Shown: in pieces, positions 55,563 to 60,569 of the stretch
How positions within the stretch are numbered: the first letter of the stretch is position 1
Layout of the letters: every line of letters starts with the position of its first letter
NCBI GenBank assembly: GCA_000002435.2
Contig: CM018793.1
Reading direction: 5' to 3' (one strand)
DNA: 64,000 bases
Source: Giardia intestinalis
Lineage: Eukaryota
Translations under genes and position numbers: made by a program
The notes under the pieces: generated by a model
Seen by the model: only the letters and a program-made list of their open reading frames with translations
Databases searched by the model: none
What the model was told of the DNA's origin: nothing

Positions 55563-57419
55563 TCACGCCTTCCCCCTGCACACGAACCACCAGCAGAGGA
55601 AGCCCACGAGGCCCCCCACGACAGCGATGACAGCCACGGAGATCCCTGCTATGGCACCAGTACTGAGGCCGCTTCTGTTGCCCCCGCTGGGCTTGGTGGA
55701 CACGCACGCCTCACCCTCCAGCCTGTAGTCGTCCCCACACTGGCCGCACTTGTTCTCCTCGCTGCACCTGACGCACCCGTCGATATTGCAGGCGATGCAC
55801 TTCGTTCCGTCTGTGTTCGGCCTCTGGTCTTTACTGGTACAGGCCTCGCACTTATCGCCTGCTCCACAGTGCGAGCATCCGTCAACGGTACATGCGAAGC
55901 ACCCGCTCCCAGCCAGGTTGGGCTTGTTGTTGTTGGTACACGCTGTACACACAGCAGCAGTCATACCAGTCTCAGATGGAGCTGCTGGGGCCGTACATGC
56001 CGAACAGCCATCTACCCCCACATATGCCTTAGAGGTATCACCAGTGCCTACTAGTGTGCCAAGGGAGTTGCTACATGCCAATACAGACTGATTCTGATTG
56101 GTTGCCCCAGGGACTATGAAGTACCTATTGTTGGCATTAACAGCAGTACAGACACCGTTGGCTGCTGTCTTGCACATATGTTGTCCAGGTACTGTATCAA
56201 CCTTGTAACAACCTCCCATATACAAGAAGTAGTTGTTAGTGCATTGTGTACATACACCTTGATCACATTGATTATTTGCTTTAGCACTATTACACTTCCC
56301 ATCTATAGGATACGTATTAGCTTCTCCACAGTATGAGCAATAATGATGCTCTACACCCTTATCATCAATCACTATTGCATCGCAGGCACCAGAAGTTCCT
56401 CCACAGGCAGTATCATCTTCACAGATCTTGGTGCATGTGACAGAGCCAGTACTGCCCTCCTTGCGATAGTTAGGCTTACAGTCAGTGCACTTGAAAGCAC
56501 CGTTGTTAGAGCAGACACTGCAGCCTTCGCGACCCTTATCGTCTACGCTATCGCATGGGACGCACTTCTTCCCCTGTTGATCTGTAGTAGTTACTAAGAA
56601 GTATCCAGTCTTGCAGGTTTCACACTTATTTGGATCACCAGCAACAGAGCATGTGGCACAGTTATCACCACACTTGTCTGTACATGTACTAGTACCACTA
56701 TCAAAGAAGTATCCATCGAGACAGGCTGAGCAGGTTGGATTGTCACTTCCTGTTTTCGTACATGTCTTGCAGTTGGCCTTTCCTTCGTTACCAAGAGTTG
56801 AATCTGTCACATCACTACAAAGAGCACACGTTTTGTCCTCCTTCATAAATAAGGCCTCGTCAGCGCCCTCGCATCCTTCAAGCGTCTTCGCCACGCAGGT
56901 CGATGTCCCGTCGAGGGCCGTCCTGGGGGTCTTATTGGTCCCGCAGTTAGTGCACTTCGGCTTCCCCGTGGCCTTGTCGAAGGAGCATGCCGTGCACTCT
57001 GCGTGTATCGTACTACATGCCTTGCATGTTCCCGACTCCGGGTCAGCATAAGTGTTTCCATCGCATCCAGTATCTTGTACACATTGATTACTCTTCAGGT
57101 ACTTCCCCTCTGGGCACGATGTACAATGATTCTGACCACTTCCATCGCAGGTCAGACAAGCTTCATTACATTTGACACATGTCTGAGAGTTCTTGTAGTA
57201 TCCATCTTGGCACTCTGTACACGTGGCAGGTCCTGGACTACTGTCTGACTTGGTACACTGTGCGCAGTTAGCCACCCCTGTATATCCATCTGCCCCATTG
57301 ACATCATGACAGAGGATGCACTCACTACCAGGCTTCTGAGGTGTAACTGGGTTCTTGAACAGGCCGTTATCTGCTTTACAAGCAGTGCACACTCCTCCCT
57401 CAGCCTTTGTGCATATCAC
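55563..57419 (-). CDS. VSP-family ORF, 618 codons, intact frame with C-terminal TM + CRGKA but no ATG or signal peptide (startless cassette or young pseudogene)
   Basis: Protein ends '...[38 protein letters not shown]'. It has many CXXC motifs and a GGCY motif '[13 protein letters not shown]'. The first codon reported as M is GTG (57417-57419 plus 'cac'). It is preceded in frame by AGT, TGG, TAG (stop at 57426-57428). Immediately 5' are the 3' UTR repeats and the stop of the upstream unit. No hydrophobic signal peptide. Confidence 0.6.
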   Translation of the reverse strand: [618 protein letters not shown]

Positions 57420-57420
57420 A

Positions 57421-60400: not shown

Positions 60401-60569
60401 CCGTACATGTGGCGCAGTTAGCCACCCCTGTATATCCATCTGCCCCATTGACATCATGACAGAGGATGCACTCGCTACCCTTCTCTGGTGTTGCAGCCGG
60501 GTTCTTGAACAGGCCGTTATCTGCCTTACAAGCAGTGCACACTCCACTACTGGCCTTTGTGCATATCAC
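57495..60569 (-). CDS. VSP-family ORF, 1024 codons, mosaic, intact frame with TM + CRGKA but no ATG or signal peptide
   Basis: Ends '...[38 protein letters not shown]'. GGCY motifs '[12 protein letters not shown]' and '[13 protein letters not shown]'. The 'M' is GTG (plus 'cac' 60567-60569), with an in-frame TAG at 60576-60578. The N-terminal 520 or so codons are collinear with the other units. Codons about 520-990 (roughly 59000->57610) are a divergent cysteine-rich block absent from the other copies. Confidence 0.6.
   Translation of the reverse strand: [1024 protein letters not shown]

Follow-up and report, generated by a model that had tools for sequence, protein, structure and literature searches.

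What keeps two long reading frames open when neither has a start codon of its own and a neighbouring copy has visibly decayed? The question is raised by a 64,000-nucleotide stretch of contig CM018793.1 of Giardia intestinalis (Giardia lamblia; GenBank assembly GCA_000002435.2), hereafter the window, in which non-N sequence is confined to 51833..64000, positions 1..51832 being all N. An earlier note, made from the letters alone, had recognized two intact, start-less units of 1.9 and 3.1 kb as copies of variant-specific surface proteins (VSPs) and posed a choice: either they are very recent duplicates, or their open state is maintained for use as donor cassettes. Our analysis identifies the region, with near certainty, as a VSP "linear array" of G. 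lamblia WB, in which a complete gene (U1) is followed by head-to-tail pseudo-VSP cassettes (U2, U3, U4, and U5). We further propose that the frames are open through recent exchange among VSP copies and not through selection on the silent ones. We assign these two statements a joint probability of about 0.7, the recency of exchange as the keeper of the frames being the less certain part.

One complete gene heads a linear VSP array

All VSP-like coding capacity in the window lies on the minus strand and falls into one reading frame common to the units, with open stretches at 63074..60642 (which contains U1), 60575..57498 (U2), 57425..55566 (U3), and 55511..54234 (U4). Searches against Pfam recovered the VSP family PF03302 in U2 (E = 1e-83), U3 (5e-39), and U4 (7e-20), bearing out the earlier view of these units as Giardia VSP copies without their own start. 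U1 is identical to the annotated WB VSP P0004 (KAE8304683.1/XP_001705078.1; 4.02-Mb scaffold), and its ATG at 62885 carries the only occurrence of the initiator motif YAATGTT in the 12.2 kb of sequence. The downstream units all start at one internal point, corresponding to U1 codon 108 (62564), and their bodies run on to the CRGKA tail, apart from U4, which is truncated before the anchor.

This layout corresponds closely to published descriptions. In WB, linear arrays hold over half of the vsp genes, their spacers average 60 bp, and the first member often possesses an upstream non-coding region and the initiator PyAatgTT, which is found in no downstream member (Adam et al. 2010, BMC Genomics 11:424, PMC2996952). 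Here, likewise, the units stand head to tail with short spacers, U1 has the initiator and upstream non-coding DNA, and the downstream members keep the VSP body and conserved 3' end and lack the initiator, a proper start codon, and the signal peptide. The downstream members also have the form expected of donor cassettes, being 5'-truncated, promoter-less copies set between conserved homology blocks.

The 3' ends are uniform. U1, U2, and U3 terminate in (I/V)CRGKA*, and each unit then shows the same order of elements: a TGA stop, an extended polyadenylation signal directly after it (ACTYRGGTAGTGAATGC; 0–1 mismatch), and a short run of irregular GTGATAG repeats. The signal corresponds to the published VSP motif ACUUAGRUAGURAAYRY (Rodriguez-Walker et al. 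2022, bioRxiv 10.1101/2022.03.07.483299). From stop codon to open frame, the three intact spacers measure 72, 78, and 60 nt, all multiples of 3, and the units are therefore in one frame. Each TGATAG within the repeats provides paired stops in one frame, and several in-frame stops separate neighboring units. The polyadenylation signal also includes an ATG (AGTGAATGC) that shares the frame of the following cassette, from which the repeat stops cut it off. In other WB arrays, the old annotation reads a similar spacer as open protein ('MLYSDSDSAMWCGGDS...LLFMGGCY'; P0003, P0009, and P0011).

From the common unit boundary, we infer that the array would have arisen when a unit with its 5' edge inside the coding region, at U1 codon 108, was duplicated in tandem. 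Because this edge would lie within the gene, the downstream copies would have been formed without initiator, ATG, or signal peptide, and each would have retained the cysteine-rich body, the membrane anchor, the CRGKA tail, and a polyadenylation signal of its own.

Intact frames without a usable start

The frames of U2 (60575..57498; 1026 codons) and U3 (57425..55566; 620 codons) contain no internal stop, which confirms their reported intactness; the intervals given earlier, 57495..60569 and 55563..57419, describe the identical frames from a bacterial-type GTG through to the stop. Based on base composition, the chance of such an open frame is 2e-23 for U2 and 1e-14 for U3; read in any of the other five frames, this DNA has 7–101 stops. 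Cysteine accounts for 12.5% of residues in U2, with 45 CXXC motifs, and for 12.3% in U3, with 28; GGCY-type motifs are present as FLYMGGCY in U3 and as FLYMNGCY and FLKDGGCY in U2. Long open reading frames (ORFs) also overlie the cassettes in antisense, for example at 58341..59135 on the plus strand, and in U2 one antisense frame is interrupted by only 12 stops over 1026 codons; these are most likely a by-product of VSP codon composition and not genes.

The earlier statement that the units have no ATG requires qualification, as in-frame ATGs do exist, the first at codon 284 in U2 and codon 194 in U3, but none is early or in an initiator context. No YAATGTT context was found at in-frame ATGs in or before U2 and U3, and where ATGs do occur close to a unit start, they lie in another frame or TGA/TAG pairs block them. 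The reported absence of a signal peptide held under a simple hydropathy test, used in place of SignalP: no in-frame Met in U2 or U3 is followed by a hydrophobic signal sequence, the 10-residue hydropathy maximum being at most 1.44, against 2.41 in U1. The cassettes lack both the signal peptide at an ATG and the initiator PyAatgTT of complete VSPs, and every spacer contains stops, so that no cassette possesses a start that could be used.

Two further routes to translation were considered and rejected. As to splicing from an upstream exon, no junction contained a Giardia 3' splice-site or branch consensus, and the three loose matches all lie inside coding sequence. Read-through from the upstream unit would find one common frame, but also several in-frame stops per spacer.

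The last 427 residues of U3 correspond to an older annotated protein, XP_001705784.1, called from an internal Met, with 425 of 427 positions identical. The two differences cluster within three codons (SNS versus ENP) at ~56055..56047 (ACSNSLGT); possible causes are micro-conversion, allelic variation, and consensus sequences that differ between the assemblies.

Divergence between units bears the imprint of translated protein

Pairwise comparisons of the units gave nucleotide identities of 0.585–0.687, with synonymous divergence (dS) of 0.99–1.98, which is near saturation, nonsynonymous divergence (dN) of 0.29–0.44, and dN/dS of 0.20–0.30. Between unit pairs, 55/57 to 76/76 cysteine columns are kept (97–100%), and the indels, 13–25 events per pair, are all in frame. 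Had the U2–U3 divergence been neutral, ~39 nonsense hits would be expected. Given the in-frame pattern and the absence of these hits, the divergence appears to have been laid down in translated sequence. At the level of sequence, the comparisons thus demonstrate that the divergence between units accrued under protein-level purifying selection, which probably acted while the sequences belonged to translated genes. The dN/dS and cysteine comparisons foreseen in the earlier note therefore reveal constraint, but they do not establish selection on silent copies: a dN/dS of 0.2–0.3 is the mark of evolution as translated protein, not proof of selection on silent copies in place.

Beyond WB, the closest protein is a VSP of isolate DH (P0002) at a non-syntenic single-gene locus, which was used only for the dN/dS of the C-terminal block of U3; over the last 187 codons of U3, dS was 0.37 and dN/dS 0.27. 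Between U3 and this VSP, synonymous differences locally rise above 75%, a sign that VSP lineages have diverged in composition. Among the other assemblies compared, no independent comparable array was found, two loci (L002 and L003) being single VSPs and a third (L004; GCA_000498735.1) being arranged differently, without this junction.

GC content at third codon positions (GC3) is 0.82 in the unique 5' part of U1, 0.62 in the rest of U1 (profile 44–86%), 0.51 in both U2 and U3, and 0.60 in U4. We considered GC3 as a marker of long silent residence but, U1 itself being a GC3 mosaic, keep the values as an observation. Rejected was the idea that U2 and U3 are recent duplicates of each other (dS ~1.2; nucleotide identity 64%). 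The alternative of recent duplication or maintenance consequently proves too simple, as the two units are mutually old, yet large parts of them are near-identical to other WB copies.

Mosaic structure and exchange with complete genes

Sliding identity between unit pairs jumps between ~45% and ~90–100%, and the best-matching relative shifts along each unit. Within the window, U1 and U4 share a near-identical tract (Table 1), whose flanks are ~40–60% identical; the chance of such a run is ~6e-44, and we read the tract as a recent segmental transfer between a complete gene and a silent cassette. Comparable matches lead to other scaffolds. Residues 605–1023 of U2 match P0121 (XP_001709621.2/KAE8303702.1), a complete VSP with a signal peptide on the 2.76-Mb scaffold, at 400 of 419 positions (95.5%), and a near-identical match to residues 31–104 of U4 (~75 aa) occurs in another complete VSP, P0007 (GL50803_00114674; 1.97-Mb scaffold). 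The last 520 residues of U2 are also identical at 514 positions (98.8%) to XP_001705785.1 (P0146), the N-terminal halves of the two being 56–66% identical. XP_001705785.1 is an 887-aa protein of the older WB annotation, with an accession adjoining the old U3 entry XP_001705784.1; it may represent another copy or an allele, or reflect a difference between assemblies.

Taken together, these comparisons show the cassettes to be mosaics, which have exchanged segments among themselves, with U1, and with VSPs located on other scaffolds of chromosome scale. The near-identical tracts are proof that silent cassettes and complete genes have exchanged sequence, not of the direction. The donor-cassette or gene-conversion reading advanced in the earlier note fits the tracts shared with U1 and with complete VSPs elsewhere; the idea itself had already been published.

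Recent exchange as the probable keeper of the frames

How long an unselected frame survives can be estimated: the probability that it is still open falls below 0.05 at ~2.3–3.4% substitutions for U2 and at 3.7–5.9% for U3, a limit that becomes lower with indels. Part of each frame may then be open simply through recent copying, as the 425/427, 514/520, and 400/419 matches suggest. In the explanation that we favor, each segment would have belonged to translated VSP genes for most of its history, and its copying into or out of its present place would be recent. A frame of 1.9–3.1 kb would last only while neutral divergence since the last copying event, or since the last residence under selection, stays at or below ~2–6%, and cassettes that are not refreshed would decay, as U4 (truncated) and U5 (frameshifted) have done. 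The conserved 5' box and the conserved 3' end with its spacer would serve as homology anchors, and the role of the cassettes, following the published idea, would be that of a silent reservoir feeding segments to complete VSP genes over evolutionary time. The open frames are explicable in this manner without translation of the cassettes.

Several observations weigh against this explanation. The exchange tracts, known from one genome only, fit a cassette donating to a gene and a gene overwriting a cassette equally well. For the N-terminal half of U2, no near-identical partner was found in the protein database (best 66–88% in 50-aa windows), so that recent copying does not directly account for the 1.5 kb that is open there; the missing partner is weak evidence, because pseudo-VSPs are absent from that database. 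Finally, the older assembly has a different N-terminal half upstream of U3, and the window comes from a long-read assembly, beside a gap. Some of the mosaic structure could accordingly stem not from history but from a second copy, allelic variation, or a difference between the assemblies.

Among the alternatives, the first holds that the cassettes are plain junk, that is, by-products of unequal crossing-over without a role, open through youth or recent overwriting and heading for decay. It accommodates the decay of U4 and U5 and the few percent of divergence that a neutral frame can survive; "remains of discarded vsp genes" already figured among the possibilities of Adam et al. 2010 (PMC2996952), and the pseudo-VSPs of Giardia muris are essentially untranscribed (PMC7641422). 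We nevertheless consider it unlikely. The tracts shared with complete VSPs show that the arrays join in exchange, so that their sequence can reach expressed genes, and many arrays have been retained both in G. lamblia (208 pseudo-VSPs) and in G. muris (239).

Selection acting in place for donor function, under which broken cassettes would yield non-functional mosaic VSPs by analogy with trypanosome VSG arrays and Borrelia vls, is a little more doubtful still. Such selection, a hypothesis raised by Adam et al. 2010 (PMC2996952) and Xu et al. 2020, would fit the two of four downstream cassettes that are fully open over 1.9 and 3.1 kb, the openness of the N-terminal half of U2 in spite of its lack of a near-identical database partner, the conserved homology blocks at both cassette flanks, and, weakly (P = 0.07), the avoidance of all 53 cysteines by the 19 differences between U2 and P0121. 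Against it stand the two broken cassettes, the near-identical copies of parts of U2 and U3, the absence of a demonstrated directional transfer, the theoretical weakness of second-order selection on donors, and the expectation that frames below ~2–6% neutral divergence would be intact anyway. In its fuller form, to which we give the same low credence, the cassettes would be selected as working donors, and segmental conversion would also diversify expressed VSPs despite a switching presumed to be free of DNA rearrangement. A cassette might even be activated by recombination at the ICTKA...NGLFKNP box, by which it would gain the initiator and signal peptide of U1, and the U1/U4 tract would be a footprint of such conversion.

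Far less probable is a role at the RNA level, in which transcripts of silent arrays would feed the RNAi-like pathway that restricts VSP expression to one mRNA. All vsp genes have been proposed to be transcribed, and all but one transcript to be degraded through Dicer, RdRP, and Argonaute (PMC8957917), and long near-identical tracts are common to cassettes and complete VSPs; but such a role needs no open frame, conserved cysteines, or in-frame indels, the G. muris pseudo-VSPs are essentially untranscribed (PMC7641422), and nothing in the window bears on it. Least probable of all is that the cassettes are expressed as proteins, whether translation begins at an internal ATG or a non-AUG codon, continues from the upstream unit, or follows splicing to an exon further upstream: the older annotation does call proteins from internal or spacer ATGs (XP_001705784.1 from U3 codon 194; P0003, P0009, and P0011 beginning 'MLYSDSDS...' in the spacer), every unit has its own polyadenylation signal, and the units are all in one frame, but an initiator motif is lacking, in-frame Met residues are not followed by a hydrophobic signal sequence, the junctions show no splice-site or branch consensus, several in-frame stops (including the unit's own) lie between neighboring units, the current annotation and the 2022 reclassification class signal-peptide-less VSPs as pseudogenes, and those of G. 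muris are not transcribed (PMC7641422).

Table 1. Features of the VSP array and its surroundings (window positions).
Feature	Position	Strand	Remarks
N run	1..51832		scaffold gap adjoining the VSP array
U5, decayed cassette	51833..53199	-	frameshifts and stops; cut off by the gap
Decayed membrane-anchor/CRGKA remnant and junction S4	53190..53422	-	1-nt deletion in remnant; S4 spacer 53258..53190
Non-VSP filler replacing the 3' part of U4	53430..54242	-	~0.8 kb; begins exactly where U1 identity ends
U4, start-less cassette	54231..55511	-	426 open codons; ends ...AAQQKRG*, truncated before the membrane anchor
U1/U4 near-identical tract	U4 54243..54584 = U1 61586..61245	-	339/342 nt identical; 284-nt exact run
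Junction S3	55503..55565	-	stop, polyadenylation signal (one mismatch), GTGATAG repeats
U3, start-less pseudo-VSP cassette	55563..57425	-	620 open codons + stop; cysteine-rich, membrane anchor, CRGKA tail
Junction S2	57417..57497	-	stop, polyadenylation signal ACTTAGGTAGTGAATGC (exact match to published motif), GTGATAG repeats
U2, start-less pseudo-VSP cassette	57495..60575	-	1026 open codons + stop; CXXC-rich, membrane anchor, CRGKA tail; mosaic
Junction S1	60567..60641	-	TGA stop, VSP extended polyadenylation signal ACTCAGGTAGTGAATGC, irregular GTGATAG repeats; stops in all frames tested
U1, complete VSP	60639..62885	-	748 aa + stop; initiator TAATGTT at 62887..62881, signal peptide MFQLIPLFVASALMAAC, cysteine-rich body, membrane anchor, CRGKA tail
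Conserved 5' box in U1 (ICTKAxxGVCT..., ICTKA...NGLFKNP)	62475..62564	-	80–92% nucleotide identity among units over first 90-nt window

Decayed members and flanking sequence

Downstream of U3, the array loses its regularity. U4 is a third open start-less unit, overlooked in the earlier note. The filler that replaces its 3' part showed no similarity elsewhere in the window, and its longest ORF has no Pfam match. Beyond the filler, 53336..53153 is 95.7% identical to the U3/U4 junction at 55646..55462, comprising the U3 tail, the spacer, and the U4 head. In U5, VSP similarity is spread over three frames with many stops, so the decay that had been noted at this locus (53199..51833) is real.

Immediately next to U5 lies the scaffold gap, and the array may extend past the window. 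In the WB assembly, N runs sized from an optical map join contigs (Xu et al. 2020, PMC7000408); the present N run matches this stitching practice, and the array therefore adjoins an unresolved repeat. At the other end, the ~0.9 kb upstream of U1 (63075..64000) has a GC content of 64.6% and long ORFs on both strands, for which a Pfam search returned no match; this segment looks like the "extended non-coding region" reported before first array members. The N-terminus of the DH protein P0002 ("VSP, partial"; L001:6300-8453, AHGT01000044.1) resembles a frame-shifted N-terminal region of U1, which suggests a frameshift or a mis-called start in the DH assembly.

Relation to published arrays and to cassette systems

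The window is an instance of the G. lamblia linear arrays, from the same isolate WB and without difference in kind. It shares with them the ~60 bp spacers, the initiator on the first member only, the conserved 3' end with CRGKA and polyadenylation signal, downstream members that often have no internal stops, a position at a contig end or gap, and signs of recombination. The donor-cassette idea has likewise been proposed before (Adam et al. 2010, PMC2996952; Xu et al. 2020, Sci Data 7:38, PMC7000408). In G. muris, similar tandem arrays of signal-peptide-less VSP copies, untranscribed and with phylogenetic signs of segmental conversion, are a proposed silent reservoir (Xu et al. 2020, Microb Genom 6:mgen000402, PMC7641422). 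They differ in being almost all adjacent to telomeres, whereas WB arrays are not reported to be preferentially telomeric, and in having the tail GCRGK and 26 intact VSPs.

The VSG genes of Trypanosoma brucei offer a parallel, with large silent arrays of incomplete antigen genes; segmental conversion between these silent copies and complete genes yields mosaics. There, switching by conversion into a single telomeric expression site has been demonstrated experimentally. In Giardia, by contrast, each of the ~136 complete VSPs has its own initiator, and conversion from a cassette is not known to have been observed in real time.

A resemblance also exists to the Borrelia vlsE/vls, Neisseria pilE/pilS, and Anaplasma msp2 systems, in each of which a complete expressed gene stands beside promoter-less, 5'-truncated, mostly in-frame cassettes. 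Conserved sequence bounds these bacterial cassettes, and the systems rely on a single expression locus and on high-frequency unidirectional conversion during infection. Neither such a locus nor such conversion is known for Giardia. VSP switching is instead thought to be epigenetic or post-transcriptional and to proceed without DNA rearrangement (review, PMC8957917).

The arrangement and the donor-cassette hypothesis are thus already known, having been published in 2010 and 2020. New for this array are the dN/dS values, the in-frame indels, the 342-nt U1/U4 tract, the common start point at codon 108, and the limit on neutral survival of the frames. Pseudo-VSPs make up a large share of the surface-antigen repertoire, with 208 in WB against 133 complete VSPs, and whether they are a reservoir or debris bears on the speed at which new antigens are generated and on the design of VSP-based vaccines. 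In this array, the sequence has evolved under protein-level constraint, segments are exchanged between cassettes and complete genes, and the recency of that exchange can account for the open frames; the published donor hypothesis therefore remains plausible.

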